From assembly GCA_028678905.1 (NCBI GenBank), contig JAJRCO010000349.1, positions 1-24,000 of the forward strand: a stretch of DNA of 24,000 nt, given 5' to 3'. The position numbers and the translations under genes were made by a program. The DNA is from Methanomicrobiales archaeon (lineage in GTDB: Archaea; Halobacteriota; Methanomicrobia; Methanomicrobiales; JACTUA01). The notes below the pieces were generated by a model. That model worked only from the letters and a program-made list of their open reading frames with translations. It was not told where the DNA came from and ran no database searches. Shown here piece by piece: positions 2-21,757 of the stretch; the stretch's first letter is position 1; each line of letters opens with the position of its first letter.

Positions 2-508
2 AGGAGCCCCTACCAGACAGTCTCTATCCCTCTGGGAGGTTTTCAGCTTCCTCTAGATTATCTTATCATCATCATCGTTACTGTCGGTATTATCTGTGGC
101 CTCTATCTGTTTCTGCGAAGAACAACGGTCGGAAGGGCTATCCGGGCAACAAGTCAGAACAGGAGGGGGGCAATGCTCGTAGGCATAGATGTGGAGCGGA
201 TGGATATGATCAGTTTTGGCATCGGTTCCGCTCTTGCTGCAGCGGCGGGAACTCTCTGGGTGGTAAGTGGTCAGGTATTCAATCCATACATCGGATCCAT
301 TCCTGCAATCAAGGCATTTGCTATCGTCATCCTGGGGGGCCTGGGGAGCATCCCCGGGGCTATCATTGCCGGCTTGTTGTACGGTCTTGCTGAAAACGGG
401 GCGGCATATTTCCTTGGCGGAGTCTGGAAGGATTCCATATCCTTTATCATCCTGATTGTTGTCCTCATCATCAGACCTACCGGGTTATTCGGGGAATCGG
501 GGGAGTAG
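2..508 (+). CDS. livH: Branched-chain amino acid ABC transporter permease, LivH/BraD type (5' end lies outside the window)
   Basis: The frame of the 173..508 ORF stays open back to base 2 with no stop, so the gene runs off the left edge. The translation ...LRRTTVGRAIRATSQNRRGAMLVGIDVERMDMISFGIGSALAAAAG...IIRPTGLFGE is a typical C-terminal half of LivH-family permeases. Stop TAG at 506-508. Confidence 0.85.
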   Translation, partial: RSPYQTVSIPLGGFQLPLDYLIIIIVTVGIICGLYLFLRRTTVGRAIRATSQNRRGAMLVGIDVERMDMISFGIGSALAAAAGTLWVVSGQVFNPYIGSIPAIKAFAIVILGGLGSIPGAIIAGLLYGLAENGAAYFLGGVWKDSISFIILIVVLIIRPTGLFGESGE

Positions 509-512
509 CTCG

Positions 513-1496
513 ATGCATTGGGAATCATTTCGACGGTTTGTGCTCCCTTTCATCTTTATCCTGGCGCTGGGAATACCCCTCCTTATAGGGGTGAATTTTT
601 TTCTCCTCAATATCCTGATCCTGATGCTCGTCTTCATCATATTTTCTTCTGCATGGAACCTGCTGACCTACTCAGGACAGGCGTCACTGGGTCATGCCGC
701 TTTTTTTGGGATCGGTGGATATGTCTCAACATTGCTGGTGGTGAAAATGGGAGTTCCTATCCAGGCAGGTATTGTTCTCAGTGGTTGTATCGCAGCAGCG
801 ATGGGATTATTCATCGGCATCACCTGTGTACGACTCAAGGAATGGTTTCTTGCTATGGTTACCTTCGGGTTTGCGATTATTACTGAGACCCTGATCGCCA
901 GCCCTCTGGCAGCATTTACGGGCGGCTGGGATGGATTGGGAACGCCGCATCTGATCAGTCATGAAATTCCCGGCTATATCGTCTTTGAATATTATCTGAT
1001 TCTTGCGGTTACTCTTGCTACCCTCATCGGCATCCATTACATACTAAAGTCACGGGCCGGTCTCGCATTTGCCGCGATCCGTGAAAATGAAGTAGAGGCA
1101 AGAGCAGCTGGCGTGGATCCGGTCAAGTATAAACTTCTGGCATTCACTATCAGCACATTTATTGCAGGAATCGCCGGAGCCCTGGAGATACATTACGTGG
1201 GATATATTACCCCAGAAATTTTCAGCCCACAGATCTCGTTCTGGCCCGTCACCTACTCCATCTTAGGGGGACTGGGGAATCTGTGGGGACCGGTGATAGG
1301 TACCGTCGTCCTCACCATCTTCTGGGAAGGCCTGAAAACGATCGGACTTACCTATGAACGATTCATTATCATCGGATTAATCCTCATCCTTTCCGTGATC
1401 TTCCTGCCGAAGGGGCTAATCTCCTTCCCCGAGGAGCTCAGGAAGAAAGTGAGGAAATATAAACATAAATCGCCTGATACCAGAAGTGACGTATAA
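513..1496 (+). CDS. livM: Branched-chain amino acid ABC transporter permease, LivM/BraE type
   Basis: ATG at 513 lies 4 nt after the livH stop and is preceded by GGGGGAG. The protein is multi-TM and hydrophobic, with GQASLGHAAFFGIGGY and AIRENEVEARAAGVD motifs characteristic of LivM. The 456 start in the ORF track would overlap livH and adds a non-hydrophobic leader, so 513 is preferred. Confidence 0.85.
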   Translation: MHWESFRRFVLPFIFILALGIPLLIGVNFFLLNILILMLVFIIFSSAWNLLTYSGQASLGHAAFFGIGGYVSTLLVVKMGVPIQAGIVLSGCIAAAMGLFIGITCVRLKEWFLAMVTFGFAIITETLIASPLAAFTGGWDGLGTPHLISHEIPGYIVFEYYLILAVTLATLIGIHYILKSRAGLAFAAIRENEVEARAAGVDPVKYKLLAFTISTFIAGIAGALEIHYVGYITPEIFSPQISFWPVTYSILGGLGNLWGPVIGTVVLTIFWEGLKTIGLTYERFIIIGLILILSVIFLPKGLISFPEELRKKVRKYKHKSPDTRSDV

Positions 1497-1510
1497 TTAC
1501 ATCAAATTGT

Positions 1511-1527
1511 TCTGATCTTTTTTCAGA
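1511..1527 (+). terminator. Short inverted repeat TCTGA-N7-TCAGA containing a T6 tract (1518-1523) between convergent livM and livF
   Basis: Read directly from the 26-nt convergent spacer. The stem is only 5 bp and overlaps the livF stop codon (1523-1525). The oligo-T fits archaeal-type termination of the + strand unit. Confidence 0.3.
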
Positions 1528-2218
1528 TTCCGAGGTATGCCCGTTGCACATGTTCATTGTGGTATAACTCCTTCGTCTTCCCCTCGAGAATTATCCTTCC
1601 ATTCTCCATAACATACCCTCTCTGGCAGAGATCGAGGGCATTCCGTATATTCTGTTCAAGAAGAAGGATGGTCATTCCTTCTCTACCAAGACGTTCCAGT
1701 GAACGAAAAACCTGACCAATTAAGAGAGGAGATAGACCGGTAGAGGGTTCATCAAGAACCAGTATCTTAGGGTTTGACATGAGTGCCCGACCTATCGCCA
1801 GCATCTGTTGCTCCCCGCCACTCAGTGTCCCCGCAAGCTGAATCTCCCGTTCCTTAAGAATAGGAAAGAGCGAGTGAATATCCTCCAGATCTTCCTCCCA
1901 GCCCGACCTGTCACCCTTACCCAGCCTCAGGTTTTCTAGCACTGTCATTTTAGGGAATATCTCTCGTTTTTCCGGTACCAGAGCAAGCCCCTTGCGGAAG
2001 ATCGCATGCGGGGGCAGCCCACGTATATTCTCTTCCAGGAAGTTGATGGTTCCCTCCACTTTGGGAATGAATCCAAAAATGCTCTCCACAAATGTAGTCT
2101 TTCCCGCTCCATTTGGTCCCAGAAGGGCTACAATCTCCCCCTTATCGATTCGCAGGTTGAGATCCCAGAGTATCTGGAGATTGCTTCGAAAGACATTCAG
2201 TCGTTCAATTTCCAGCAT
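1523..2218 (-). CDS. livF: Branched-chain amino acid ABC transporter ATP-binding protein, LivF type
   Basis: Walker A GPNGAGKTT, signature LSGGEQQMLAIGRAL, Walker B ILVLDEPSTGLSP and the C-terminal H..V..AYLG ending typical of LivF. Starts 11 nt after the livG stop. Confidence 0.9.
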   Translation of the reverse strand: MLEIERLNVFRSNLQILWDLNLRIDKGEIVALLGPNGAGKTTFVESIFGFIPKVEGTINFLEENIRGLPPHAIFRKGLALVPEKREIFPKMTVLENLRLGKGDRSGWEEDLEDIHSLFPILKEREIQLAGTLSGGEQQMLAIGRALMSNPKILVLDEPSTGLSPLLIGQVFRSLERLGREGMTILLLEQNIRNALDLCQRGYVMENGRIILEGKTKELYHNEHVQRAYLGI

Positions 2219-2229
2219 GTGGAGAATTC

Positions 2230-2958
2230 CTAGAATGCATCTATGTCGCCAAGATAGGTATCAATAACTCGCTGGTTGTTCATTACCTCGTAAGGTCTTC
2301 CTTCAGCAATTTTCTCGCCATGATCCAGAACCACAATCTTATCAGAAACGCCCGTGATGACCCGCATCACATGTTCGATGATGAGGATTGATATCCCTGC
2401 TTCCCGGATTTTCCGAATTAATTCGATTGCATCATTGCTCTCTTTTGGGGTCAGACCGGTGGTCAATTCATCCAATAAAAGGAGTTTTGGTTTGGAAGCG
2501 AGAGCACGAGCAAGCTGCACTCTTTTTAACTCCACCACGTTTAAGTTGCGGATCAGCATCTCCTGCTTTTCTTTCGCAACTCCAACAAAATCGAGGAGTT
2601 TTTCCGCTGCCTTCCTTCCCTCATCAAGGCTGACCGAGTGTGAATTCCCAAAGATTGCACCCACCATGACACTTTCATTTGCTGTCAATTCGGGGAAGAG
2701 ATGGGCATGCTGAAAGGTTTTGGCAATTCCCTTCCTACATATCTGCTCAGGTTTCCAGCCAGTGATATTCTCTCCCTTAAAGGTGATACGTCCTTGGGTA
2801 GGATGTGATAGCCCGGAGATAATGTTGAGGAGAGTGGTCTTTCCTGCGCCGTTTGGACCAACAAGACCAACGATCTTACCCTCTCCCACCATCAGATCGA
2901 CCCGATTTACGGCTAAAAGCCCTCCTATCTGTTTAGTTACTCCGGTGACCTCGAGCAT
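2230..2958 (-). CDS. livG: Branched-chain amino acid ABC transporter ATP-binding protein, LivG type
   Basis: Walker A GPNGAGKTT, Q-loop, Walker B LLLLDELTTGLTP, H-loop IIEHVM and the LivG-type ending VIDTYLG. Start set at ATG 2958 (MLEVTGVTKQIGG...), the usual LivG N-terminus. The 21-codon upstream extension in the ORF track is not family-like. Confidence 0.9.
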   Translation of the reverse strand: MLEVTGVTKQIGGLLAVNRVDLMVGEGKIVGLVGPNGAGKTTLLNIISGLSHPTQGRITFKGENITGWKPEQICRKGIAKTFQHAHLFPELTANESVMVGAIFGNSHSVSLDEGRKAAEKLLDFVGVAKEKQEMLIRNLNVVELKRVQLARALASKPKLLLLDELTTGLTPKESNDAIELIRKIREAGISILIIEHVMRVITGVSDKIVVLDHGEKIAEGRPYEVMNNQRVIDTYLGDIDAF

Positions 2959-2998
2959 TGTTACTCTGTCATTGATAGCACGGCTATTATTAGTATGG

Positions 2999-3010
2999 AA
3001 AAATATTAAA
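2999..3010 (-). promoter_or_regulatory. TATA-like box (minus strand TTTAATATTTTT) about 45 nt upstream of the livG start
   Basis: An AT-rich element in an AT-rich spacer between cooC and livG. This suggests livGF has its own promoter and is not simply the tail of the acs operon. Confidence 0.3.
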
Positions 3011-3167
3011 CGTATGGTCACTGCACGACAGTGTTAAATCGGATGGTAAATAGTCTCAGGAACATCGCACGTAGCGATCGGTTCGATTTCAACATATTTC
3101 ACATAATCTAATCGGAAATACTGCTCACGTTAAACATATGTCACTACCATGAATTTGGCTGGTCGAG

Positions 3168-3950
3168 TCACTCCTTCGACCCACTGCCTTTACACATTTC
3201 CCTGAGTTTCTCACTGATGTCCTGAACTGCCTTTTGCGCAAGACTCTTTTTTCCTATCTCTGCCAGAGGCGACCCCCTGATATCCGCGTCCTCCACGGCC
3301 GAATCTTCAGGAATGATCCCGAGCAATGGCAGGGTACTCCCCTCTGCCCTGTCTCCATCCGGTTTCACGCGGTTGAACACCAGATAGATCCGGTCTTGCT
3401 GAATCCCGATGGAAACGGCGAGATCCCGTATCCGTTCCGCTGTCCGCACTCCCCGGGCCGAGGGATCGCTCACCACCAGCAGCAGATCAGGCTGCCCGAC
3501 CGTCCTCCGGCTGATATGCTCCATCCCCGCTTCACTGTCCACCACCACCCAGCGGTACTCCTTCTCCAGGAGTTCCATTGCTGCGGACAGGAGCGTGTTG
3601 GCGAAACAGTAGCATCCCAGACCTTCCGGCCGGCCCATTGCCACCAGATCGAAGCCCTTCGACTCCACGAGCACCTGCCGGAACCGCAGCGCGATGTAGT
3701 CCTTGCGGGACATACCGGGAGGAATACTCCGGGTGAACGCATCCTCCCGCATGCCTCCGAGAGATTCTCTCATCGTTAACCCCAGCGCCTCATGGAGATT
3801 GGCATTGGGATCCGCATCCACCGCAAGAACGGGTGTTTCCTGCGCATCGACCAGTGCAGTGACCAGCAGGGCAGCAAGAGTGGTCTTTCCCGTCCCTCCT
3901 TTCCCGGATATCGCAATCCGGCAGGTCTTCAGAGGAACGCCTCCCTGCAT
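3168..3950 (-). CDS. cooC: CooC/AcsF-type Ni-insertion accessory ATPase (MinD/ParA-like P-loop NTPase)
   Basis: Deviant Walker A GKGGTGKTT near the N-terminus, and a CxC metal motif in EGLGCYCFAN as in CooC proteins. Last gene of the acs operon. Its ATG at 3950 overlaps the preceding gene by 22 nt. Confidence 0.85.
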   Translation of the reverse strand: MQGGVPLKTCRIAISGKGGTGKTTLAALLVTALVDAQETPVLAVDADPNANLHEALGLTMRESLGGMREDAFTRSIPPGMSRKDYIALRFRQVLVESKGFDLVAMGRPEGLGCYCFANTLLSAAMELLEKEYRWVVVDSEAGMEHISRRTVGQPDLLLVVSDPSARGVRTAERIRDLAVSIGIQQDRIYLVFNRVKPDGDRAEGSTLPLLGIIPEDSAVEDADIRGSPLAEIGKKSLAQKAVQDISEKLREMCKGSGSKE

Positions 3951-4963
3951 CGTTTAGCCAGAGCTGCCGTGGCCGCCAGAATCTCTTCTGCCATACCCTC
4001 ATCACCAAACTGGATACCACAGGTGGGGGTGATAAGAGACTGGCGATCGATTATTTCCGTATCGATATACTCCCCCAAGCGTGAGCGGATGGTGGTGATT
4101 CGCGCACACAGGGACTCGATAGACTCTCCCCGGAACACCGCATAATCGACCGGCACGATCCCCCAGGCGATGACACCCCCTTTTTCCAGGTAGGTCGCGA
4201 TCGCCTCACTATAGAGAAGGAACTCTCGGGCGAGGAGATAGGTGTCAAAAGAAAGGACCGCCGGTTCCAGGGCGAGAAGGAATTCCCAGTCGGTATTGGC
4301 ACAGCAGTGGATTCCGTATCCGTCTTCGAGCAGCGAGGCCGCATCGATGAGAGCGCCTGCCACGGCCTCTCGATCGAGGGGAACTACCGAGGATCCAAGA
4401 GAGGTGAGGTACGGTTCGTTGAACACTACCAGAGACGATCCGGCTGTGGTATGGCGATGAATTTCCTGTTCACACCACCGGGCCTGTAAGCCCAGGAGCT
4501 TTCCCAAGATATCTGCATACTGCATGTCATAAAAGATCGGCCGCTTGTCGCAATCGGTAACCTGCATCCCGAACGTCACCGGACCGGTCACCTGACACTT
4601 CAGCACCCGGGGATGATCGGGGGGATGCGCTAGCATTTCATAAAACGCCGAGGCATACTCCGGGCCGGTTCCGTACGAAGATGCATTGCCTTCCAGGAAA
4701 TCATGGTAGATCTGTTCGAGAGCGGAGGAGCAATCTTTCCGGGTGTCGACGAACAACCGCTCTCCGACCAGCGTTCTGCCCGGGAGGTGTGCGGAATTGT
4801 TGAACACGATCCTTTCCTGAAGCCCCCGACAGGGCAACGTGGGGACAAAGGGGAACTGAGGGAAGAGGGAAGAAGCTAGGCGCCAGGCTGCTGCGGGGTC
4901 GGTATGGGGGAGAGCCCCTATACCGGTGGCCAGGTATTTGGGAGGAGAGATCATCCGGGGCAT
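3929..4963 (-). CDS. MetE-fold (cobalamin-independent methionine synthase C-terminal domain-like) Zn-thiol methyltransferase-like protein, about 344 aa
   Basis: Collinear MetE-like blocks are present: ATGIGALPHT (cf. TTIGSFPQT), VTGPVTF (cf. LTGPVT), VVFNEPYL (cf. IQIDEPAL), IHCC (His/Cys codons 4301-4309; cf. H-x-C Zn ligands), LSFD (acidic ligand position, 4244-4246) and ITPTCGIQ (Cys codon 4019-4021; cf. NPDCGLK). Start chosen at ATG 4963, with GAGG 7 nt upstream and 2 nt after the RACo stop. ATG 4969 (ATGA overlap) or 4990 are alternatives. Confidence 0.65.
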   Translation of the reverse strand: MPRMISPPKYLATGIGALPHTDPAAAWRLASSLFPQFPFVPTLPCRGLQERIVFNNSAHLPGRTLVGERLFVDTRKDCSSALEQIYHDFLEGNASSYGTGPEYASAFYEMLAHPPDHPRVLKCQVTGPVTFGMQVTDCDKRPIFYDMQYADILGKLLGLQARWCEQEIHRHTTAGSSLVVFNEPYLTSLGSSVVPLDREAVAGALIDAASLLEDGYGIHCCANTDWEFLLALEPAVLSFDTYLLAREFLLYSEAIATYLEKGGVIAWGIVPVDYAVFRGESIESLCARITTIRSRLGEYIDTEIIDRQSLITPTCGIQFGDEGMAEEILAATAALAKRCREAFL

Positions 4964-4965
4964 GG

Positions 4966-6870
4966 TCATTCCTCTTTTCGTAACCGGCATTCAGCAAGCA
5001 TCTTTTCCACGGTAGGAAACAGGGACAGATCGGTGTGGGGAAGGAAACAGCTGGAGGTATACCGGTCCATGAACGTAGGGTCGGCATTCAGCTCGATATA
5101 CGCGATCTCGTGGGCGATGGTGTCCAGAGCGTTGCGCCGGTCCCGGTTGATAAGCGCGATGTTTGCTCCGGCGAGCGCCCCGTTGCCGATGGTCTCGATC
5201 CGATCTACCGGCACTTCTGGGATCAGACCGATGGTGATTGCGTTCAGCCGGTTCAGGTAGTTTCCAAACGCCCCGGCGAGATAGATCATCCCGATGTCGT
5301 CTTTATTGATCCCTGCCGCATCCATCAATGTGTAGCAGGCCGCAAGGATGGCAGCCTTGCTCATGATCAGGTTCTGGATATCATTCTCGGTGATGACGAT
5401 GTCTTTTCCGATCTCGGTATCATCTTTAGGCACCACCACGAATTCCGGGTAATACTCCCCTTGTCGAATACGGGGATTGGAGGAGGTGATGTCCAGTCGT
5501 CCGGTCCGGTCGATGAAACAGCTCCGCAGCAGCTCGGCCAGAAGATCGATCATCCCCGATCCGCAGATACCCCGGGGTTTGATCTGATTGATGGTCTCAT
5601 AATGGACCTGGAAAGGCCTGGTCTCGATGCGCACTTTCTCGATCGCACCTGGATTCGCCCGCATACCAAACAATACTTCGGCTCCTTCCAGCGCCGGCCC
5701 GGCCGCTCCGGCACAAGAGAACATCCAGTCCTTGTTTCCGAGCACTACCTCAAAGTTTGTTCCCATGTCCACGAGGAGGGAGACATCTTCCCGTTCGCCC
5801 ATTCCGCAGGTGAGGATATCTCCGACGACATCCCCACCGATAAAGTTCGAAACGGAAGGGAAGAAATACACACCCGCGGTGCGGTGTGCATCGAGGGAGA
5901 GATGCTCCGCCGTGGTATAAATGGATCGGCGGACTACCGGCACGTACGGTTCCGCAATCATGTATTCCGGATCGATCCCCAGGAGCAGGTGAGTCATGAC
6001 CGTATTTCCGGCGATCTCCAGTTCGAAAATATCATCCATATCGATCTTTGCCATGTTACAGGCGCTGTGAAGCGCCCGGTTGATGCTCTCCGCCGCGAGC
6101 TGCTGGAGGCGGGCCAGACCGCTTTTCCGGGCATAATTTACCCGAGAGAGGATGTCTTCACCAGTACCGATCTGACGATTATAGTTGGACGCCACGGCCA
6201 GGATAGCTCCATCGATCAGGCTGCGCACGGTGACCACGATGGTTGTGGTTCCCAGATCCACCGCCGCCCCATACAGCCGGGCCTGGGTGTCTCCTCCCTC
6301 TATATGGATGAGACGGTATCCCCCTGGCACGATCGCCACCGTTGCGGTTACCATCCAGTTATTTTCCCGCAGTGTGCGCGAAAGCTCACGAAGGATGGGG
6401 AGAGGGGCAAAGATCTTACGCACTGATGGCCCTCCCTGTTTTTCTATCCGCCACAGGAGCCGGGTGAGATCGGGAGAAGGATCCTCCAGGGTGGGTGGAC
6501 TCATCTCCACGTAATATTTGGTCACCGATGGAAGAACAGGAACATCTGCCGCTTTGCTTTCCATCAGAATCTTTTGTTCCTGGATGAGCGTGCTCTCCGG
6601 GATTTCGACATAAAGATCTCCCAGCACCAGGGTTTTGCAGGCGAGGCTTGCCCCCCGTTCGAGCTCCTCAGGAGTAAAGAACAGGGCGTATTTCTCCCGG
6701 TCAAACTCTGTCTCTCCGCTCTGGCGGTAGATCACGCATTTGCCACACTTCCCCTGTCCCCCGCAGACCACGTTCAGGTTCAGGTTCGCTTTCTGGGCCG
6801 CTTCTAGAACAGTGGTTCCTCTCTCAACCTCGACCTTTCGGTAACTGGGGAGAAATGTGACCACCGGCAT
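4966..6870 (-). CDS. RACo-type ATP-dependent reductive activator of corrinoid proteins (N-terminal 2Fe-2S ferredoxin domain plus ASKHA ATPase domain)
   Basis: The N-terminus has a plant-type ferredoxin cysteine pattern, VVCGGQGKCGKCV...SLACKT. This is followed by a long ASKHA-like body (AVDLGTTTIV..., VDMGTNFEVV, ICGSGMIDLL, IYLAGAFGNY). Size of 634 aa and the position next to acsC match corrinoid activators found in acs clusters. Confidence 0.85.
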   Translation of the reverse strand: MPVVTFLPSYRKVEVERGTTVLEAAQKANLNLNVVCGGQGKCGKCVIYRQSGETEFDREKYALFFTPEELERGASLACKTLVLGDLYVEIPESTLIQEQKILMESKAADVPVLPSVTKYYVEMSPPTLEDPSPDLTRLLWRIEKQGGPSVRKIFAPLPILRELSRTLRENNWMVTATVAIVPGGYRLIHIEGGDTQARLYGAAVDLGTTTIVVTVRSLIDGAILAVASNYNRQIGTGEDILSRVNYARKSGLARLQQLAAESINRALHSACNMAKIDMDDIFELEIAGNTVMTHLLLGIDPEYMIAEPYVPVVRRSIYTTAEHLSLDAHRTAGVYFFPSVSNFIGGDVVGDILTCGMGEREDVSLLVDMGTNFEVVLGNKDWMFSCAGAAGPALEGAEVLFGMRANPGAIEKVRIETRPFQVHYETINQIKPRGICGSGMIDLLAELLRSCFIDRTGRLDITSSNPRIRQGEYYPEFVVVPKDDTEIGKDIVITENDIQNLIMSKAAILAACYTLMDAAGINKDDIGMIYLAGAFGNYLNRLNAITIGLIPEVPVDRIETIGNGALAGANIALINRDRRNALDTIAHEIAYIELNADPTFMDRYTSSCFLPHTDLSLFPTVEKMLAECRLRKEE

Positions 6871-6873
6871 GAG

Positions 6874-8205
6874 TTATCCCATCTCCTTCTCCAGAAATTC
6901 AGGTAGGTCGGCGGCATCACGGGGTCCGACCATTACCTTCCAGCCGGTCATTTCCTCAACCCGGCCAGAGATGGGCGCCGCGTACCCGGGCAGCACAAGT
7001 GTGCGATGGCTTACTGCCTCTTCCGCTCCGAACTTTTTCAGTGATTCTCGGACCAGCGTCTCGTTCAATTTGCCCGCAGCCACCGCGGTCAGCACCGAGA
7101 GGCCTTCTGTATCCACCACCAGAAGATGGCAGGGGATCTTCGCTCCTTCGAGATATCCCAGAACAGTGAAATAGGTAAGGGAAAAATTTACTGTGATCAG
7201 GAGAGGTGACTCCCTGCCGGGACTGTTCACCGGGTATAGGCCTGGTGCCATCTGGATCGGCTTCTGAGGGTCGGTATAGATGTTCTGGCGGAGAGTGAGA
7301 AAGGCAAGTTTCCGGGAATACTCCAGGGGCCGGGTCACGATCAACGATCCGTACTTCAGGACGCCCAGCGCACAGGCAGCGTCCGGATCCGGATATGTGG
7401 TCGTGTCACAGTAGACCGGGTACCCGACCGCAGGCACCGTGCGTTCGATGGCCGCTTTTCGGATCTGGGTAGACAGGGCGAGGAACTCGCGGGGTGTGGT
7501 CGCTGCGGGATCCATCACCAGATCCTCCACCCCTTCCTGTACGCACTTTGTAGTAAGGTTGGCGAGGCCCTCCACTGATCCTGCGCGGACGGTGAGAGGA
7601 CATCCGAATTTCGTGGCGAGCCGGCAGAAAGAGGTATAATTTGCGTCTGTCGCCGCACAGAGGAGAGGGCGATAGGTTCCGCATTCGATGAGGCCAGCTT
7701 CGAGCACTTCAGGATGATCGGAGATCAGAATTTCCGGAAGGCTCACCATCTCTTCGATCGCGGCGACGGTCTTCTGGAACGTATCCGCGGCACCGGATAC
7801 ATTCCGGATGGCCACCCCGGATAGAAAGAGATCCTGACCCACCCGGGTGAACATCTCGTTCTCGATCTGCGCCGCAACGACCTTCACCTGTCCAGGGGAC
7901 CAGGTATCGGGAATCTCCACCATCAGGCCGGGGGGATGGTAGAAGGTCTTGTCATGCCGGAACAGGACCGTTTCTTCCCCTACCACCACCTTGCGGGGTC
8001 CCACCCCGATGCGCACCAGGCGGATAGGAGGTCGCGTGGCCGCTCCCAGTTTCTGCCGGGTCTCCTCATCAAGGTAGGGGCAGGTCGCGGGGTCTGCCTT
8101 ACCGGATGCAATCTTCATGGCAAACGCGAGACAGGTCGGGAAACCACATTCCTTGCAGTTCTTCTTGGGCAGGATCTTGTAGATATCCAGGGCTTTGAGC
8201 GCCAT
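6874..8205 (-). CDS. acsC: Corrinoid iron-sulfur protein large subunit (AcsC / CdhE gamma-type)
   Basis: N-terminal 4Fe-4S motif CKECGFPTCLAFAMKIASGKADPATC (C-x2-C-x4-C-x16-C). Length of 443 aa matches AcsC. Start set at ATG 8205, 1 nt after the acsD stop TAA (8207-8209), with GGGAGAAGGG upstream. The 8232 start in the track would overlap acsD. Confidence 0.9.
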   Translation of the reverse strand: MALKALDIYKILPKKNCKECGFPTCLAFAMKIASGKADPATCPYLDEETRQKLGAATRPPIRLVRIGVGPRKVVVGEETVLFRHDKTFYHPPGLMVEIPDTWSPGQVKVVAAQIENEMFTRVGQDLFLSGVAIRNVSGAADTFQKTVAAIEEMVSLPEILISDHPEVLEAGLIECGTYRPLLCAATDANYTSFCRLATKFGCPLTVRAGSVEGLANLTTKCVQEGVEDLVMDPAATTPREFLALSTQIRKAAIERTVPAVGYPVYCDTTTYPDPDAACALGVLKYGSLIVTRPLEYSRKLAFLTLRQNIYTDPQKPIQMAPGLYPVNSPGRESPLLITVNFSLTYFTVLGYLEGAKIPCHLLVVDTEGLSVLTAVAAGKLNETLVRESLKKFGAEEAVSHRTLVLPGYAAPISGRVEEMTGWKVMVGPRDAADLPEFLEKEMG

Positions 8206-8206
8206 T

Positions 8207-9130
8207 TTACCCTTCTCCCGCCAGATGCGCAAATCCTTTTTTCAATTTTTCCAGGGTGCGGGGATGACGCACACACACGATCTCCGCTCCGGCAACGGCT
8301 GCAGAGAATGCAGCGCAGAACTCCCACATCACCGCTGTTTCGTCCCGAACCTCCTGCGGGGCCTCCCGGACCTCCTTTATATTCAGAGAATCCGCCGCTG
8401 CACTGATCATGGGCATGGCCAGATCCGTATCTCCTTTCAGGGCGGCGGTGCGGATCCGCTCCATTACAGAATAAGAGTACTCAAAGCCGTACCCAAGCGC
8501 GCCAGTGAATGGGTCGATCACGATACGGTCATGGGGCATCCCGATCTCGTGGAGAAGGATGTTGAGTTGTTTCGCCAAGTTAATATCGATCGGTGATTGT
8601 GCGATAACCCCATGGCCGAATGCCACCGCCGCTGCGGCCACGCTGCGGTAGCGATCCGCTTCCGCGGTGCCGAGGAGCGCCCGTTCTCCCGCCGCCGCCT
8701 CTCCACAGGCAGAGAAGACCTCGCTATCCACAGAGGGCTCATTGCTCCCTTCGATAATGAGAGGAAGACCAGTTCCCTGGAGAACCGCCTCGATGGTGGT
8801 CCGCACCCCTCGAACATCTGAAAAGCCTCGTTTTCTGGTGCTGGTGAGATGAAGACGCACCAGATCTGCCCCGAATTCCTTTTCTGCCTTTTTCGCCCAC
8901 TCTCCCGCATCCCTGGTAACATCTCCTGTATAGGCCAGCACAATGGGCGACCAGCTACCAGTATCATCACAGATCTCCAGGGCGATAAGGGGCATTTCGC
9001 TCGCACCCTCCAGGAAAGGAAGATTCTTCGCTCCCCCCACCGTGCAGACGCGACTGCGAGTTCCTCCTTCCTGCTTTGTTGCACCGATATGCACTCGATC
9101 GATCTCCCCGCTCCAAGTCATCGGCTCCAA
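8207..9130 (-). CDS. acsD: Corrinoid iron-sulfur protein small subunit (AcsD / CdhD delta-type, short bacterial-length form)
   Basis: The N-terminus VHIGATKQEGGTRSRVCTVGG resembles the AcsD N-terminal block (LGATK..GGTRSH...VGG), followed by a TIM-barrel-like body. The start is ambiguous: TTG at 9130 (GGAG 8 nt upstream, overlapping the acsB stop) or ATG at 9121. Confidence 0.85.
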   Translation of the reverse strand: MEPMTWSGEIDRVHIGATKQEGGTRSRVCTVGGAKNLPFLEGASEMPLIALEICDDTGSWSPIVLAYTGDVTRDAGEWAKKAEKEFGADLVRLHLTSTRKRGFSDVRGVRTTIEAVLQGTGLPLIIEGSNEPSVDSEVFSACGEAAAGERALLGTAEADRYRSVAAAAVAFGHGVIAQSPIDINLAKQLNILLHEIGMPHDRIVIDPFTGALGYGFEYSYSVMERIRTAALKGDTDLAMPMISAAADSLNIKEVREAPQEVRDETAVMWEFCAAFSAAVAGAEIVCVRHPRTLEKLKKGFAHLAGEG

Positions 9131-9141
9131 ACCTATCTCTC

Positions 9142-11172
9142 CTACAGCAGCGGTGTCATGTTCAGCACCGGGTGCCGAACTTTTTCCAAATAGGTGGCCA
9201 GCTGTTCCAGGGTCGTGGCGATCTTCTCGTCGCCGATCTTATCGTACAGGTCACCCAGCCCCTCTTTCTGGAGCTCCTTGCGGAGGCGCTCCCCGATCTC
9301 CTCCTTCACCTGACTGGGGAGCCACACCAGCCGTTTATGCCCATCCTCCGCCTGAAAGAAACGTTCGCTGGCGATAAAGAGCTTGGAGATTCCCGCAAAT
9401 CCCGGGGTCTGGGCTCCACCCCCGATTGTCCCGGCCAGGGTGGAGAAACTCATTCCGCAGGGAGTGTCTCCCCGGTAATCCCTGTTCACTACCATGATCC
9501 CGTTCACCTCTGGCAGCACAACCGCGATGCATTCAAAGCAGCCACAGCAGGTCATGGGGGCATCCACCAGACTGTACAGGGAGCAGCGTTCGACCTCACC
9601 ATGCGAGGCTTTGCGTACAAACCGGTTCACCCCTTCAAACTCTCCCCGCCTAGCATCGATCAGGGGACCTTTCTTGACCGGCTGGTTTGCCCCCGCAGGG
9701 GAGATTTCATAGGCCGTCCTGCCATCCAGCCAGGATATGGCGCCACAGAGGGCCAGACGCTGGGGGGTGATGATGCAGACGTGATTTGGCGCGAACGTCT
9801 GGCAGAGGGTACAGGAATAAAAGATGTCCACATCCTCATCTTTCATCCCGGCAATGCGGGCGTCCCTCTCCTCATACACCTGTTCCGCGGCCTTCATGGC
9901 CTCCCTGACCTTTCCCTCTTCGGTGATCAGCGTAACCTGGACCGCGTCCAGGAGCTCTGGAAAGTCCATCCGGAATTTTGCCGCGATCAGTTTCCCCAGA
10001 TGTACGATGCGCAGCCCCTGGGCAACGGACTCCTTGGAAAACCGGACCCAGATCAGGTTTCTCTGGGCTACATGCCAGGTCCCTTCCCCGTAATTGACAA
10101 AATTGTGGATCCTTCTTTCCAGAACCGGTTCGAACTCTTTTTTCATCCGGGTACCAGCCACTTCCACGATGACTCCCAGGGGAACCGCAGATCCTTCCTT
10201 AACCTCCTCGATCTCCGGCCCGATCACCGTGACCTTTCCGTCCTCCACCGTGTCCGTGGGCCGCATCTGCAGTATCTCAAAAGCCGGGGAACGTCCTCCA
10301 CCGAATTCCACATACATCTCCTCCTTGCGGATGCTTTTGCCTTCAAAGGCAGGGGAGCAGTGCATGGGTACGGCGACCGTGGTGACCTGCACCTTGATCC
10401 TCTTGAGCTCCATACCCTTTGGTACCGCCTCAGCCACGGAGACTGGTATCCACTCACCTCCTTCGTACCCACCTCCCACGGACAGGATTGGGATACCGAG
10501 GACCCGCATCGCATCGATGAAGGCGATCTCCTCATCGGTGAGATCCGGGAAGGCGATCACAAAGGCCTTCGCCCGCTCCTGCGCATAGGCGACCAGCCTT
10601 CCTGCGTCCCCCGGTGTCACTCCTCCGAACATCAGAGCTACCCGGGCGATGATATCCACGAAATGCACGGCCGACAGGGCATCCGGCCCCAGAGGTACGA
10701 GCCGGTAGTCGACCCCAACCTTTACCCGTTCCTGTTCGAGGGCTGAGATATTTTCTCCGGTGAGGAAGGTGAGCATATACTTCTCCTGCAGCTCCCGGCA
10801 GAGACCCGCCACCATATCTCCCCGGGGAGCCTTCCCCACCAGCAGGGCAAGCCCTAAAATGCTTCCATCAACCAGGGAGTACCCCAGTTTTCGCAGGTAC
10901 GCATCAGGGATAAAACCGGTATACGGGAGTTCCGGTTTTTTTTGTCCTTCCCTGGCCGCGACTAGCGATTCCACTGCGATCAGCACGTTATTCTGAGACC
11001 GGGCGAATGCATCCTGGGCGCTCGCACCATCGCGTACTGCTGTTCCGGTCAGGGCATACGCAATAGGCAGCTGGTATGCGGTCTCTTCGTAGGAAAAACT
11101 ACCTGCCAGCCGTGCCAGATTCTCTTTGAGCACTGTATTTCCCGTCTGTACTGCCTGGTCGATCAGGGCCAT
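9142..11172 (-). CDS. acsB: Acetyl-CoA synthase catalytic subunit (A-cluster), long AcsB-type with an N-terminal domain
   Basis: The A-cluster ligand pattern is conserved: FYSCTLCQTFAPNHVCIITPQRLALCGAISWLD (four Cys) and PMTCCGCFEC, with Cys-Gly-Cys codons at 9538-9546. The spacing is the same as Moorella AcsB Cys506/509/518/528 and Cys595-Gly-Cys597 as I recall them (constant offset of 52). The 676-aa length includes about 250-300 N-terminal residues that archaeal CdhC lacks. GGAGG lies 7 nt upstream of ATG 11172. Confidence 0.95.
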   Translation of the reverse strand: MALIDQAVQTGNTVLKENLARLAGSFSYEETAYQLPIAYALTGTAVRDGASAQDAFARSQNNVLIAVESLVAAREGQKKPELPYTGFIPDAYLRKLGYSLVDGSILGLALLVGKAPRGDMVAGLCRELQEKYMLTFLTGENISALEQERVKVGVDYRLVPLGPDALSAVHFVDIIARVALMFGGVTPGDAGRLVAYAQERAKAFVIAFPDLTDEEIAFIDAMRVLGIPILSVGGGYEGGEWIPVSVAEAVPKGMELKRIKVQVTTVAVPMHCSPAFEGKSIRKEEMYVEFGGGRSPAFEILQMRPTDTVEDGKVTVIGPEIEEVKEGSAVPLGVIVEVAGTRMKKEFEPVLERRIHNFVNYGEGTWHVAQRNLIWVRFSKESVAQGLRIVHLGKLIAAKFRMDFPELLDAVQVTLITEEGKVREAMKAAEQVYEERDARIAGMKDEDVDIFYSCTLCQTFAPNHVCIITPQRLALCGAISWLDGRTAYEISPAGANQPVKKGPLIDARRGEFEGVNRFVRKASHGEVERCSLYSLVDAPMTCCGCFECIAVVLPEVNGIMVVNRDYRGDTPCGMSFSTLAGTIGGGAQTPGFAGISKLFIASERFFQAEDGHKRLVWLPSQVKEEIGERLRKELQKEGLGDLYDKIGDEKIATTLEQLATYLEKVRHPVLNMTPLL

Positions 11173-11199
11173 GGTTGCGCCTCCTCACTGTCAGTTGTT

Positions 11200-11222
11200 G
11201 CCCGTACTATAAATAAACGGGC
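11200..11222 (-). promoter_or_regulatory. Putative acs operon promoter: TATA-like box (minus strand TTTATTTATA, 11208-11217) bracketed by inverted repeat GCCCGT / ACGGGC
   Basis: The TATA centre is about 40 nt upstream of the acsB ATG. That would give a short leader containing the GGAGG. Perfect 6-bp inverted arms lie at 11200-11205 and 11217-11222, and another ACGGGC at 11238-11243. Confidence 0.4.
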
Positions 11223-11335
11223 GTAATTCACCCGCCCACGGGCTTTTCATGACCTCCAACCCGGGCAGATTGTTGATATTCCCCTCGCTTCCTAACCAGG
11301 GAAATAGGAACATCCTGTCGTGGGGCCACGTTACC

Positions 11336-11343
11336 TTAATATA
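11336..11343 (+). promoter_or_regulatory. TATA-like box TTAATATA 20 nt upstream of the aminotransferase ATG (leaderless geometry)
   Basis: No Shine-Dalgarno sequence lies between the box and ATG 11364. The spacing fits an archaeal transcription start at or next to the start codon. Confidence 0.35.
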
Positions 11344-11363
11344 CAGATTGTCGATGTAACAGC

Positions 11364-12680
11364 ATGGAACCCCTCGTCACAGTTCGCCCTCCGGGTCCCC
11401 GTGCTCAGGAGATACTGCAGCGGGATGCGGCGGTCGTCTCTCAGTCCATGGTCCGGGAATACCCCCTGGTAATCCAGCGGGCCCGGGGGATGAATATCTG
11501 GGATGTAGACGGTAACCGGTATCTGGATTTCACCGCGGGTATCGCGGTGATGAACCTCGGCTGGAACCATCCCCGGATCGTGGAGGCAGTGGTGGAGCAG
11601 TTTCCTCTCCTCTCCCACGGAGCGTTCCTTGATTTTTGTTCGGAGATACCCCTCCGCTTTGCCGAAGAACTGGTTGCACGCCTGCCTGAAAATCTCTGCC
11701 GGGTATATTATTCGAACTCCGGAGCAGAGACCCTCGAAGCCGCACTGAAACTCGCCCGACAGCACACGAAGCGGCCGTATTTCCTCGCCTTCTACGGGGG
11801 GTTCCATGGCAGAACATATGGGGCTATGAGTCTCACCGCCGCGAAAGTGATCCAGCGCAAGTATTTCGGTCCCTTTTTACCGGTGATCCATGCTCCCTTC
11901 CCCGATCCCTACCATCCGTTCGGGGGAGATCCGGCGACCTGCGCAGAGGAGGTCGTTTCCTATATCAGGGAAGAGATCTTCAGACGGGAGGTTTCGCCCC
12001 AGGAAGTGGCAGCGATCGTCGTAGAACCCATCCAGGGAGAAGGGGGATACATTGTGCCGCCGGACTCTTTCCTCCCTCTGTTGCGGGAACTGTGCGATGA
12101 ACACGAGATTCTTCTTGTCGTCGATGAGGTACAGGCAGGATGCTTCCGCACCGGGCGGTTCCTTGCCTCTGAACACACGCATACCATTCCGGACATCGTC
12201 TGCCTGTCCAAGGCTCTGGCGGGAGGGTTGCCCTTGGGAGTTACCGTCTCCTGCGATGAGGTGATGACGTGGCCTCCCGGTTCTCATGCCAGTACCTTTG
12301 GTGGTAACAGTGCAGCTTGTGCGGCCGGGTGTGCGGTGCTTAAACTCCTGCACGAACCAGGTTTCGGTGACCACGTGGAGGAAATGGGCGAGTATCTGCG
12401 GAAGAAGCTGCGGACCCTGCAGAAAGAGCATCCGATCATTGGGGACATCCGCGGGAAAGGCCTGATGACCGGCATCGAACTGGTTAAGGATCGGGAGGGC
12501 AGGAAACCGGCACAGGAAGAGAGAAAAATCATCCTTGCCTCGGCCTTCGAGGCAGGATTGACCCTACTTCCTGCAGGTGAATCTGTTATCCGGTTCTGTC
12601 CACCGCTCATTCTCGAACGAAGACATGTCGATATCGGCATCAGCATCCTCGATCGCATCCTGGAGGGAAAGGGATTCTGA
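11364..12680 (+). CDS. Class-III PLP-dependent aminotransferase (4-aminobutyrate / ornithine / acetylornithine aminotransferase family)
   Basis: Family blocks YLDFTAGIAVMNLGWNHP, SGAETLEAALKLAR, LLVVDEVQAGCFRTGRF, and the PLP-lysine block DIVCLSKALAGGLPLG. Length 438 aa. Confidence 0.85.
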   Translation: MEPLVTVRPPGPRAQEILQRDAAVVSQSMVREYPLVIQRARGMNIWDVDGNRYLDFTAGIAVMNLGWNHPRIVEAVVEQFPLLSHGAFLDFCSEIPLRFAEELVARLPENLCRVYYSNSGAETLEAALKLARQHTKRPYFLAFYGGFHGRTYGAMSLTAAKVIQRKYFGPFLPVIHAPFPDPYHPFGGDPATCAEEVVSYIREEIFRREVSPQEVAAIVVEPIQGEGGYIVPPDSFLPLLRELCDEHEILLVVDEVQAGCFRTGRFLASEHTHTIPDIVCLSKALAGGLPLGVTVSCDEVMTWPPGSHASTFGGNSAACAAGCAVLKLLHEPGFGDHVEEMGEYLRKKLRTLQKEHPIIGDIRGKGLMTGIELVKDREGRKPAQEERKIILASAFEAGLTLLPAGESVIRFCPPLILERRHVDIGISILDRILEGKGF

Positions 12681-12692
12681 GGAGGAGAGTTG

Positions 12693-14261
12693 ATGAGTGA
12701 AATGAAGATCACCTATAGCACTGTCTTAACAGATGAGAGTGTGCATCACCGATTTGAGACGGCATTGAAAAGCGTGGCAGAGGGTCTGGGTAAGAGACAT
12801 CCCTTGAAGATTAACGGAAAGAACGTCTTTGCGACCAGTGAATTCAGCGTATACTCCCCTATCGATACCTCGCTTCTGATCGGCACATTTCAGGTGGGGG
12901 AGGATGTGCATACGGAGGCAGCTATCGCCGCCGCAAAAACTGCATTTCCTCCCTGGAGTGGGCACGACTGGGAGAGGAGAACCCGCATCCTAAGGAAGGT
13001 CTCGGACCTGCTGGAGGAACGGATGTTTTCCCTGGCCGCCCTCGTGACAACGGAAGTGGGTAAAACTCGTGAAGAGAGTATCGCTGAGATCAGCGAAACG
13101 ATCGACCTGCTCCGCTACCACGCAGAGGTGTATAAACAGCAGCTGGGGTATACGCTGCCCATGCGGCCGGACCCGGAGGGAGGGACTGTCCGCAGCGTGA
13201 TGAGGCCGTACGGGGTATGGGCGGTTATCTCCCCGTTCAACTTCCCGGTCTCGCTTGCGGCAGGGATGATTTCCGCAGCTCTCCTCACGGGCAATACCGT
13301 GGTGATGAAACCCACCTCCAAGGCCCCTCTTTCTGGACTCCTCCTGTACCGGGTCTTCGTGGACGGAGGTGTTCCCGCTGACGCCCTGCAGTTCCTCACC
13401 GGCCCCGGAGAACCATTCGGCTCCCGGGTGGCCGGACATCCAGATGTCGCCGGGATTGCGTTCACCGGTTCACGGGACGCAGGGATGTGGCTGTATCGTA
13501 ATTTCTCCCGCGAACAGCCGTACCCGAAACCGCTCATCGCCGAGATGGGAAGCAAAAATCCGGCCATTGTCACCCTCCACGCGGACCTGAAGAAGGCAAC
13601 CGAAGGGATCATCCGCTCTGCATTCGGATATTCCGGTCAGAAATGCAGTGCAACCTCCCGGGTATACGTACACGCAGCGGTCGCGGATTCCTTTCTGGAA
13701 GGTCTCCGGAAGAAGGTACAGGAGATCACGGTGGGAAACCCGCGTGATAAAGAGGTATTCATGGGGCCGGTCATAGATAAAAACGCCTTGGACATCTTCC
13801 AGGAGGCGGTCGAGTCCTGCCGGAAGAGCGGCGGGAAGGTGCTGCAAGGGGGAAAGGTCCTGACCGGGAAACAGTACTCCCGGGGATTCTATATGGAGCC
13901 CACGCTGGTCACCGGGCTACCTTCCGATCACCCGCTTGTATTCAAAGAACTCTTCGTGCCTTTCCTGATCATCGAAACTTTTGAACGTATTCAGGACGCT
14001 CTGGTGCGGGCTAATGCCACCGATTACGGTCTTACCGCCGGTATTTACACGGAAAATGATGAAGAAAGAGAGTACTTCTTCAAGCATATTCACTCCGGGG
14101 TGTGCTATGCCAATCGCAAGGGCGGTGCTACCACCGGCGCCTGGCCGGGATCGCAGCCTTTCGGTGGCTGGAAAGGAAGCGGATCTACAGGAAAAGGTAT
14201 CGGGGGACCTTATTACCTGCTTTCCTACCTGCGGGAACAAGCCCAGACCAGGGTGGGGTAA
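12693..14261 (+). CDS. NAD(P)-dependent aldehyde dehydrogenase, RocA / 1-pyrroline-5-carboxylate dehydrogenase-like
   Basis: Catalytic Cys block GQKCSA, general-base block EMGSKNP (ELGGK-like) and FTGS cofactor block. The N-terminal region (GKRHPLKINGK...) and roughly 520-aa length resemble stand-alone P5C dehydrogenases. ATG 12693 has GGAGG 7 nt upstream; the TTG at 12690 listed in the ORF track is less likely. Confidence 0.8.
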   Translation: MSEMKITYSTVLTDESVHHRFETALKSVAEGLGKRHPLKINGKNVFATSEFSVYSPIDTSLLIGTFQVGEDVHTEAAIAAAKTAFPPWSGHDWERRTRILRKVSDLLEERMFSLAALVTTEVGKTREESIAEISETIDLLRYHAEVYKQQLGYTLPMRPDPEGGTVRSVMRPYGVWAVISPFNFPVSLAAGMISAALLTGNTVVMKPTSKAPLSGLLLYRVFVDGGVPADALQFLTGPGEPFGSRVAGHPDVAGIAFTGSRDAGMWLYRNFSREQPYPKPLIAEMGSKNPAIVTLHADLKKATEGIIRSAFGYSGQKCSATSRVYVHAAVADSFLEGLRKKVQEITVGNPRDKEVFMGPVIDKNALDIFQEAVESCRKSGGKVLQGGKVLTGKQYSRGFYMEPTLVTGLPSDHPLVFKELFVPFLIIETFERIQDALVRANATDYGLTAGIYTENDEEREYFFKHIHSGVCYANRKGGATTGAWPGSQPFGGWKGSGSTGKGIGGPYYLLSYLREQAQTRVG

Positions 14262-14276
14262 CAGATCTCAAATCAG

Positions 14277-14282
14277 TTTTTT
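14277..14282 (+). terminator. T6 tract 16 nt after the aldehyde dehydrogenase stop
   Basis: The sequence is aatcagTTTTTTctactttc in the convergent spacer 14262-14402. No strong hairpin is present, consistent with an archaeal-type oligo-T terminator. Confidence 0.35.
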
Positions 14283-14402
14283 CTACTTTCTAATGGTCGA
14301 GCAACCGGAAGCTAGAAAAATGGAGGTTCCGATGCATTCGATCTCCCTTGAACCATCCCTGCCAGGCAAATGAGCCACAATTTTCTGCTGTACTCAGAAA
14401 TC

Positions 14403-16034: not shown

Positions 16035-16035
16035 T

Positions 16036-21443: not shown

Positions 21444-21757
21444 ACCGATGGATTCCTAACGTAACTTTCGTTTCTGCTACTTAAAACATCGTTGCCGAAA
21501 TTTCATTTCATGGAAGGGAAAATGCTCGTTATCCATAGTCACCAAATCACCGTCCCTCGCGACCGTCTCCACCTCTATTCTCCGGGTTTGTCAGAAATTC
21601 ACCGCGCCATTATATTGCCGCAGGAAGACGGCGGCGATGATAGCTGCATCTTAAGGAATTAGCAGGATCCAGCGGTTCTTCGTAAAAGCTCCCATCCAGG
21701 TATCGATATGGTGGTACTTTCCTGCCGAATCGGGGACCTGCAACTACTTATCTCATT

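Follow-up and report, generated by a model that had tools for sequence, protein, structure and literature searches.

What does a methanogen do with an acetyl-CoA synthase (ACS) of bacterial format whose operon encodes neither a carbon monoxide dehydrogenase (CODH) nor a methyltransferase that could connect it to pterins? The question is raised by six genes in a metagenome-assembled genome (MAG) of a Methanomicrobiales archaeon (GenBank assembly GCA_028678905.1, contig JAJRCO010000349.1, positions 1 to 24,000 of the forward strand). We call this whole stretch of 24,000 nucleotides the window; positions are those of the window, and labels such as L001 and L004 denote related loci. At 3168-11172, six consecutive open reading frames (ORFs) on the minus strand were identified, from the ORF list and from profile and structure searches, as acsB, acsD, acsC, a RACo gene, a mesB-like gene and a cooC/acsF-type gene. 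The operon encodes all that is required for exchange between corrinoid-bound methyl groups and acetyl-CoA, together with a thiol methyltransferase, and includes no link to one-carbon units on pterins. We tentatively read it as a module that would cleave acetyl-CoA and supply the methyl group to a thiol, probably homocysteine, the CO passing to a separately encoded CooS. The operon is of a known, order-wide type, here met in a new MAG, and much of what follows is re-description: for some methanogens, an operon that joins mesB to acsC and acsD had already been reported (PMC7857596), and a clostridial-like ACS had been noted in Methanomicrobiales (PMC6282760). The six genes, in order of transcription, are as follows.

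9142-11172, minus strand: acsB, bacterial-format acetyl-CoA synthase, 676 amino acids, N-terminal domain present (NF040764, PF03598, PF19436)
8207-9130, minus strand: acsD, small subunit of the corrinoid Fe-S protein, 307 amino acids from a TTG start at 9130 (PF03599, NF003376)
6874-8205, minus strand: acsC, large subunit of the corrinoid Fe-S protein, 443 amino acids from an ATG start at 8205 (PF04060, PF03599, NF003195)
4966-6870, minus strand: RACo/AcsV-type ATP-dependent reductive activator of the corrinoid protein, 634 amino acids (four Pfam domains, PDB 3zyy)
3929-4963, minus strand: mesB-like single-domain MetE-fold zinc methyltransferase of the core-MetE/MesB family, 344 amino acids (AF2 fold, zinc ligands)
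3168-3950, minus strand: cooC/acsF-type nickel-insertion P-loop ATPase, 260 amino acids (best PDB match CooC1, 3kje)

An earlier note, written from the DNA sequence alone, had placed six minus-strand genes at these coordinates and given them these identities, and had taken the host to be archaeal; all of this was confirmed by our searches, and its MetE-fold protein can now be named more precisely as the product of a MesB-family gene. This fifth protein, which is 100% identical, over the same length of 344 residues, to GenBank MDD1679611.1 (LUO93_10580) from a Methanomicrobiales MAG, yields no sequence match in Pfam, NCBIfam or the PDB even at E = 10. An AF2 model based on 33 aligned homologues (pLDDT 86.8, pTM 0.88) retrieves from the PDB, in a Foldseek search, first MetE from T. 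maritima, Neurospora and Candida (best E 4.5e-7, TMq 0.54-0.59) and the single-domain protein 3RPD (TMt 0.56), with folds of the UroD family as second-best matches. Profile comparison with the PDB gives a weak match to 3RPD (E 0.24) in which only the DEP and HxC regions can be aligned. The family itself is large, with 1946 clusters (50% identity) found by profile search at E <= 1e-3, and a few of its members reach PF01717 (Meth_synt_2).

The predicted zinc site is what ties the protein to a characterised enzyme. H219, C221 and D240 are invariant and C315 is present in at least 90% of sequences in an 82-sequence family alignment, and all four are invariant among the 81 homologues encoded at the loci that we collected. 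The core-MetE of Dehalococcoides mccartyi, a biochemically characterised enzyme of 343 amino acids, binds zinc through His215, Cys217, Asp236 and Cys312 (PMC7005905); counted from the histidine, the remaining ligands lie at +2, +21 and +97 in that enzyme and at +2, +21 and +96 in the window protein. Price, Deutschbauer and Arkin (2021) described HCDC as the signature of the MesB family and predicted that its methyl donor is the corrinoid Fe-S protein (PMC7857596). Ligand pattern, length and predicted fold make the fifth gene a member of the MesB/core-MetE family; Price et al. assigned membership by a score of at least 130 bits to D. mccartyi MesB (DET0516), and ours was assigned by fold and zinc ligands instead. 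The MT2 enzymes MtaA and MtbA share with the window protein a TIM-barrel, a His/Cys zinc site and the transfer of a methyl group from a corrinoid to a thiol, but it is not one of them, as MetE is the better fold match and the ligands follow the order HxC...D...C.

The partners of this methyltransferase are of bacterial type, as the earlier note had held from the length and N-terminal domain of AcsB, the short AcsD and the presence of RACo. AcsB matches NF040764 at 887 bits (cut-off 800) over residues 6-675, and its best PDB matches are the ACS of Carboxydothermus hydrogenoformans (603 bits) and that of Moorella (588 bits), whereas Methanosarcina CdhC reaches 397 bits over residues 269-670 only. 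When scoring is confined to the two shared C-terminal domains, the order is C. hydrogenoformans ACS (523 bits), Moorella (504), Clostridium autoethanogenum (431) and Methanosarcina CdhC (398); in the PDB comparison the N-terminal domain has a counterpart only in the bacterial enzymes. The A-cluster ligands are intact (C454, C457, C466, C476 and C543-G544-C545), with a spacing of 3/9/10/67 that is also that of what we take to be the Moorella ligands, C506, C509, C518, C528 and C595.

The beginning of AcsB shows a peculiarity of its own. Its first 80 or so residues (1-81) do not align to the N-terminus of the Carboxydothermus or Moorella enzyme, the region being about 50 residues shorter, so that alignment to these two enzymes starts at residue 82; alignment to the C. 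autoethanogenum enzyme starts at residue 27. This is the region that presumably contacts CODH in the bacterial complexes.

AcsD scores 338 bits against NF003376 (cut-off 280) and 215 bits against TIGR00381, below the cut-off of 253, and AcsC, with an N-terminal FeS domain (PF04060), scores 537 bits against NF003195. Their best PDB matches are the small subunit of the Moorella corrinoid Fe-S protein (CoFeSP; 4djd_D, 231 bits) and the large subunit of that of C. hydrogenoformans (2h9a_A, 395 bits), respectively. The activator matches the Fer2, RACo_linker, Raco_middle and RACo_C_ter domains and PDB 3zyy at 473 bits, and reaches 548 bits against the AcsV model NF040756, below its cut-off of 800. 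For AcsC, AcsD and RACo, PDB matches are to bacterial structures only. The sixth protein, an ATPase of the MinD/ParA class, matches C. hydrogenoformans CooC1 (3kje) at 75 bits, its GKGGTGKT and GCYC motifs aligning to the P-loop and to CxC. With just 29% identity to the cooS-linked CooC of the related locus L026, it is a separate paralogue and, from its context, probably an ACS-specific AcsF.

None of the ORFs in the 24-kb window matched a CODH, CdhB or a pterin-binding methyltransferase in profile searches, in agreement with the earlier statement that CODH, CdhB and AcsE-type genes are absent from the transcription unit. A reading of the cluster as exceptional is not supported by our comparison: the six genes form a conserved block across Methanomicrobiales. 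We gathered about 45 related archaeal loci, from Methanoregula, Methanolinea, Methanosphaerula, Methanoculleus, Methanofollis and Methanospirillaceae, and the order AcsB-AcsD-AcsC-RACo-MesB-like-CooC is found in each of those with enough flanking sequence, L087 departing from it only in ending with a shorter, unannotated last ORF. The flanks of the block are unrelated from locus to locus. Where the best 120 AcsB homologues carry a source name, it is always Methanomicrobiales, Methanoregulaceae or Methanolinea. Between the window and L001, its closest relative, dN/dS is 0.04-0.11 for all six genes. Judged by these values and by its recurrence, the block is a conserved, functional unit under strong purifying selection; a degenerate relic is ruled out by the low dN/dS and by the fact that all ligand sets are intact.

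The block also shows occasional irregularities. In some Methanoregula and Methanospirillaceae (L010 5786-7069, L012 3727-7094, L015 and L044 3488-6164), insertions of 1.3-3.3 kb lie inside it and separate RACo either from acsC or from the mesB-like gene. The inserted ORFs mostly have no family match, but that of L010 matches a thioredoxin-like domain and one in L044 a peptidoglycan-binding domain. In two further MAGs (L037 7068-10039 and L046 189-3147), RACo and the mesB-like gene are broken into several ORFs, which are either pseudogenes or the product of indel errors in assembly.

How might such a unit work? In the scheme that we propose, ACS and the corrinoid Fe-S protein would catalyze the exchange acetyl-CoA + Co(I) <-> CH3-Co(III) + CO + CoA, RACo would rescue oxidised Co(II) by ATP-dependent reduction, and the CooC-like ATPase would load nickel into the Ni,Ni-[4Fe-4S] cluster of ACS. 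The MesB-like enzyme would then pass the corrinoid-bound methyl group to a zinc-activated thiol, most likely homocysteine to give methionine, and the CO would be oxidised by a separately encoded CooS-CooC rather than released. We favour flow from acetyl-CoA to methionine, the direction proposed for Dehalococcoides, because the block includes no methyl-pterin methyltransferase: the thiol methyltransferase is its sole outlet or inlet for methyl groups, and thioethers are poor donors. The analogy that the earlier note had drawn with Dehalococcoides gains from the identity of the fifth gene, which falls in the same family as the core methionine synthase of Dehalococcoides, an enzyme proposed to draw its methyl group from the corrinoid Fe-S protein. 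Equipped for methyl exchange between corrinoid and acetyl-CoA and with a thiol methyltransferase, but not connected to one-carbon units on pterins, the operon is well suited to test whether a methyl group can pass straight from a corrinoid protein to a thiol, as predicted for MesB enzymes.

Several points weigh against this scheme. Its direction of flux and its thiol acceptor are suppositions, and so is a need of these methanogens for acetate. Moreover, a methyltransferase encoded elsewhere could load the corrinoid protein from methyl-tetrahydromethanopterin (methyl-H4MPT) and turn the unit into an anabolic module; MtrH is one example, and the host, being a methanogen, almost certainly has it. 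In the neighbor-joining tree of MesB-like proteins, the archaeal clade is sister to the clade of bacterial six-gene clusters with a bootstrap of only 52%, and the donor lineage is thus weakly placed. In the genome paper on Methanoregula formicica, CO2 fixation is taken to be anabolic (PMC4155587). With MesA present in Methanomicrobiales as well (PMC7857596), a second route to methionine is not obviously needed. Finally, the homocysteine contacts of MetE and MesD are Ser433, Glu484 and Asp599 by E. coli numbering (Ser22, Glu73 and Asp188 in 3RPD), and the Ser and Asp of this site are mostly conserved in MesB (PMC7857596). We equated residues 17 and 182 of the window protein with S433 and D599 by way of the IGS(F/L)P and DEP motifs and the weak alignment to 3RPD, and there, as in most copies from Methanoregulaceae, the window protein carries Ala17 and Asn182, a finding that weakens the assignment of homocysteine as the acceptor.

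The replacements are clade-specific. Among 39 bacterial copies from outside six-gene clusters, Ser17 is found in 37, Asp182 in 38 and Gln55 in all 39, and the three bacterial copies from six-gene clusters keep all three residues (bacterial totals: Ser 40/42, Asp 41/42, Gln 42/42). At position 17 the 39 archaeal copies carry Ala (26), Gly (6) or Ser (7), and at position 182 they carry Asn (32), Ser (3) or Asp (4); Gln55 occurs in none of them, and Glu247, absent from the bacterial copies, is invariant. Methanospirillaceae copies keep the Ser and Asp in the same operon. These clade-specific replacements in most Methanoregulaceae may be a detail not previously described, and could reflect either relaxed constraint, MesA being present in the same hosts, or a changed thiol substrate.

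Taken to its end, the second of these possibilities would make the MesB-like enzyme of Methanoregulaceae specific for another thiol such as coenzyme M (CoM), so that acetyl-CoA methyl and methyl-CoM would interconvert, bypassing H4MPT and Mtr. There is chemical precedent, in that CoM is methylated by MT2 enzymes, whose zinc chemistry is the same. The loss of two of the three MetE-type contacts to homocysteine from most archaeal copies and of Gln55 from all of them, the new invariant Glu247 and the long archaeal branch are in keeping with such a change, as is the presence of MesA in these hosts (PMC7857596). Yet the substituted positions vary among A, G and S and among N, S and D, a pattern closer to relaxed constraint than to a fixed new specificity; Asn could still hydrogen-bond the amino group; and the Methanospirillaceae retain the Ser and Asp in an identical operon context. 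As a proposal built on residue patterns, we consider a change of substrate quite unlikely. Were it true, it would amount to an acetyl-CoA-to-methyl-CoM shunt, that is, a cryptic route from acetate to methane, or its reverse, in supposedly strict hydrogenotrophs. More generally, if the acceptor is not homocysteine, the view of acetate use by hydrogenotrophic methanogens would change.

Under the homocysteine scheme, the fate of the CO would depend on a CODH encoded at another locus, and relatives do encode such enzymes. In L004 (Methanolinea mesophila-like, 19979-22031) and L026 (Methanoregulaceae UBA467, 12845-15675), the cluster is followed, about 2 kb downstream and on the same strand, by a cooS gene that has a cooC of its own; this downstream cooS matches TIGR01702 at 671 bits and is of the clade-E type. 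In L088, a Methanoregulaceae genome of 1.95 Mb, cooS-cooC form a separate two-gene locus, and CooS homologues with 68-92% identity are abundant across Methanoregulaceae and Methanomicrobiales. Inoue et al. reported clade-E CooS in Methanoregula boonei, Methanolinea tarda and Methanosphaerula palustris, a clade-A CdhA cluster of the order cooC-cooC-cdhA-cdhB-beta-delta-gamma-RACo in M. boonei, comparable cdhA-led clusters in Methanospirillum hungatei and M. formicica, and at least one Ni-CODH in every cultured Methanoregulaceae genome listed (PMC6344411). In the related loci that we gathered, no CODH adjoins the block other than in L004 and L026, where cooS is a separate unit, and most show none within 9-10 kb of the cluster. 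Large ORFs 5' of acsB in L036 and L029 were considered as cdhA candidates and rejected, being a periplasmic-binding-protein fusion and a helicase.

Because relatives encode CODH at other loci, the term CODH-less probably applies to the transcription unit only and not to the organism. The earlier note's CODH-less reading therefore holds for the operon and is doubtful for the organism, whose relatives carry cooS-cooC and/or cdhA-cdhB. A genome truly devoid of Ni-CODH, with a Dehalococcoides-style cleavage module that releases its CO to partner organisms, strikes us as improbable. It would fit the lack of CODH genes in the 24-kb window and close to the cluster in most related loci, and the fact that none of eight Methanomicrobiales CooS cluster representatives, the only ones compared and few as candidates go, bears an accession of the MDD16796xx series of the window MAG. 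What speaks against it is the very abundance of close CooS homologues across the order, as well as the Ni-CODH of every listed cultured Methanoregulaceae genome (PMC6344411).

The same CODH genes lend themselves to a different account, in which the operon is one part of a split carbonyl branch for autotrophy: a CODH elsewhere (CooS-CooC or CdhA-CdhB) gives CO, an unlinked methyltransferase such as MtrH methylates the CoFeSP from methyl-H4MPT, ACS makes acetyl-CoA and the MesB-like enzyme is a side tap. This is essentially the general model for MesB of Price et al., and it accords with how common CooS-CooC is in Methanoregulaceae, with its proximity to the cluster in L004 and L026, and with the N-terminal domain that AcsB keeps, the dock for CODH in bacteria. 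In M. boonei, M. formicica and M. hungatei, cdhA-cdhB lies directly 5' of beta, delta, gamma and RACo (PMC6344411), and the M. formicica set has been read as anabolic (PMC4155587). On the other hand, a gene for a pterin methyltransferase is found in or beside the block in none of the approximately 45 loci, and CODH is unlinked in most of them. The methanogens that gained the system are, moreover, reportedly ones for which carbon fixation is not known (Adam, Borrel and Gribaldo 2018). We regard a split branch as a serious but somewhat unlikely account of the operon, and tentatively retain acetyl-CoA cleavage with methyl transfer to a thiol.

From where did Methanomicrobiales obtain a block of bacterial format? 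Two bacterial MAGs, L081 (Deferrimicrobiaceae) and L085 (a deltaproteobacterium), carry all six genes in this order, at 36-45% identity, and a third bacterial contig, L073, which is cut within acsC, has the last four genes in the same order; over the three bacterial loci the identities are 36-47%. The best-scoring non-archaeal relatives of the MesB-like protein are from Thermodesulfobacteriota and Ca. Deferrimicrobium. Chloroflexota homologues are also near, and do not adjoin acs genes. In the neighbor-joining tree the archaeal clade is monophyletic in 100% of bootstraps and its branch is long. The GC content at third codon positions (GC3), which the earlier note had proposed to compare between cluster and flanks, is 0.61-0.69 in the cluster and 0.59-0.66 in the right flank, and only the liv genes of the left flank deviate, with lower values. 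As the cluster equals the right flank, there is no sign of recent transfer. The suggestion of an inter-domain transfer is thus borne out as to a bacterial-type origin, whereas GC3 gives no hint of anything recent. From these comparisons we conclude that the block, which we regard as a mobile module of bacterial type, likely passed from bacteria to an ancestor of these Methanomicrobiales in a single, ancient event, and would have been inherited vertically since. Adam, Borrel and Gribaldo (2018, PNAS) reportedly describe how CODH/ACS was gained by methanogens for which carbon fixation is not known.

One of the bacterial loci is odd in its own right. In L081 (2771-17278), the acs-mesB block is followed by a DUF166 gene, a histidine kinase on the opposite strand and genes of a cbb3-type oxidase (COX1, FixO); a strictly anaerobic set of nickel enzymes is unexpected in what appears to be an oxygen-respiring bacterium.

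Comparison with characterised systems helps to delimit what is particular to this operon. Reportedly, D. mccartyi has an incomplete Wood-Ljungdahl pathway (Zhuang et al. 2014), and its mesB (DET0516; cbdbA481 in CBDB1) presumably lies outside the acs operon, whereas the mesB-like gene here lies inside it. The two systems resemble each other in an ACS and CoFeSP without AcsE and in a core-MetE of essentially equal length and zinc spacing (PMC7005905). The methyl group of methionine derives from acetate in D. mccartyi, as it would in the reading proposed here. They differ in that the D. mccartyi genome is without CODH, while relatives of our host encode CooS or CdhA and the host itself is a methanogen that uses H4MPT. 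The CODH/ACS-CoFeSP-RACo systems of C. hydrogenoformans and Moorella thermoacetica provide the best PDB matches for AcsB, AcsC, AcsD, RACo and CooC and have the same A-cluster ligands, but the window unit has no acsA or acsE, its AcsB has a shorter N-terminus that does not align to theirs, and a mesB-like gene has been added. The ACS of C. hydrogenoformans is active also as a monomer without CODH.

The archaeal acetyl-CoA decarbonylase/synthase complex (CdhABCDE) has the chemistry and the beta-delta-gamma gene order in common with the window unit, and RACo follows gamma also in the cdhA-cdhB clusters of Methanomicrobiales (PMC6344411); in contrast, cdhA and cdhB are missing from the window, the beta subunit has 676 residues and an N-terminal domain as opposed to about 470 residues, and delta is short (307 residues). 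The closest likeness is with the mesB-acsC-acsD operon of Price et al., which combines a gene of the core methionine-synthase family with both CoFeSP subunit genes in Methanomicrobiales, the HCDC pattern and the CoFeSP as predicted donor (PMC7857596). That report gives the linkage to acsC and acsD only, whereas we describe the full acsB-acsD-acsC-RACo-mesB-cooC block and its bacterial counterparts, and of the Ser and Asp reported as mostly conserved in MesB (PMC7857596), the window protein has neither. Methanoregula, Methanolinea and Methanosphaerula are abundant methanogens of peat and wetlands, in which the role of the bacterial-type ACS is so far a matter of prediction.

The layout of the genes is that of a single compact unit. 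With the start codons that are backed by homologues, the acsB/acsD junction is 11 nucleotides (acsD TTG, 9130), acsD/acsC 1 nucleotide (acsC ATG, 8205, giving 443 residues, in agreement with the 443-residue homologue in L001), acsC/RACo 3 nucleotides and RACo/mesB-like 2 nucleotides (mesB-like ATG, 4963, giving 344 residues), and the mesB-like and cooC-like genes overlap by 22 nucleotides. The recomputed values equal those of the earlier note, and its description of the flanks, a divergent aminotransferase gene on one side and a spacer of about 200 nucleotides with a TATA-like box before livGF on the other, is likewise accurate. The tight spacing recurs among the called genes of L001, L003, L004, L005 and L086 and is for that reason not a matter of chance; L087 is an exception at the last junction, where a gap of about 180 nucleotides precedes the shorter, unannotated ORF. 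Two further features mark the ends of the unit.

11208-11217, minus strand: TATA-like box TTTATTTATA, read off the sequence, 35 nucleotides from the acsB ATG, its function being predicted only
2959-3167, no strand assigned: spacer of 209 nucleotides from the cooC stop to the likely livG start (ATG 2958), with a TATA-like element TTTAATATTTTT at 2999-3010

Upstream, the first of these sits in a divergent intergenic region of 191 nucleotides (11173-11363) between acsB, whose ATG is closely preceded by GGAGG, and a class-III aminotransferase gene (11364-12680). Downstream, livG and livF follow. Similarity of the livG ORF to LivG of L001 begins at about residue 18, and the first ATG there is M22 (2958); this likely start, and hence the spacer of 209 nucleotides, would set the downstream limit of the transcription unit. 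Scans for Rfam families, tRNAs, promoters and terminators returned nothing relevant.

The genes around the unit deserve brief mention. The liv-type ABC transporter genes (livH/M-like, livF and livG; 173-3021) have a GC3 of 0.47-0.54, compared with 0.59-0.69 in all other genes of the window, and liv genes also adjoin the cluster in L001 and L086. At 14403-16839, a Ser/Thr protein kinase gene (543 amino acids) lies directly 3' of one for a protein that joins an ArsR/HVO_A0114-like winged-helix domain to an FHA domain, which looks like an archaeal phospho-signalling pair. Farther on, between an ABC-2 exporter pair and the beta subunit of a 2-oxoacid:ferredoxin oxidoreductase, a lone AAA_21/AAA_15 ATPase of 241 amino acids (21758-22483) is OLD/ABC-like and of a type frequent in defence or toxin-antitoxin systems.

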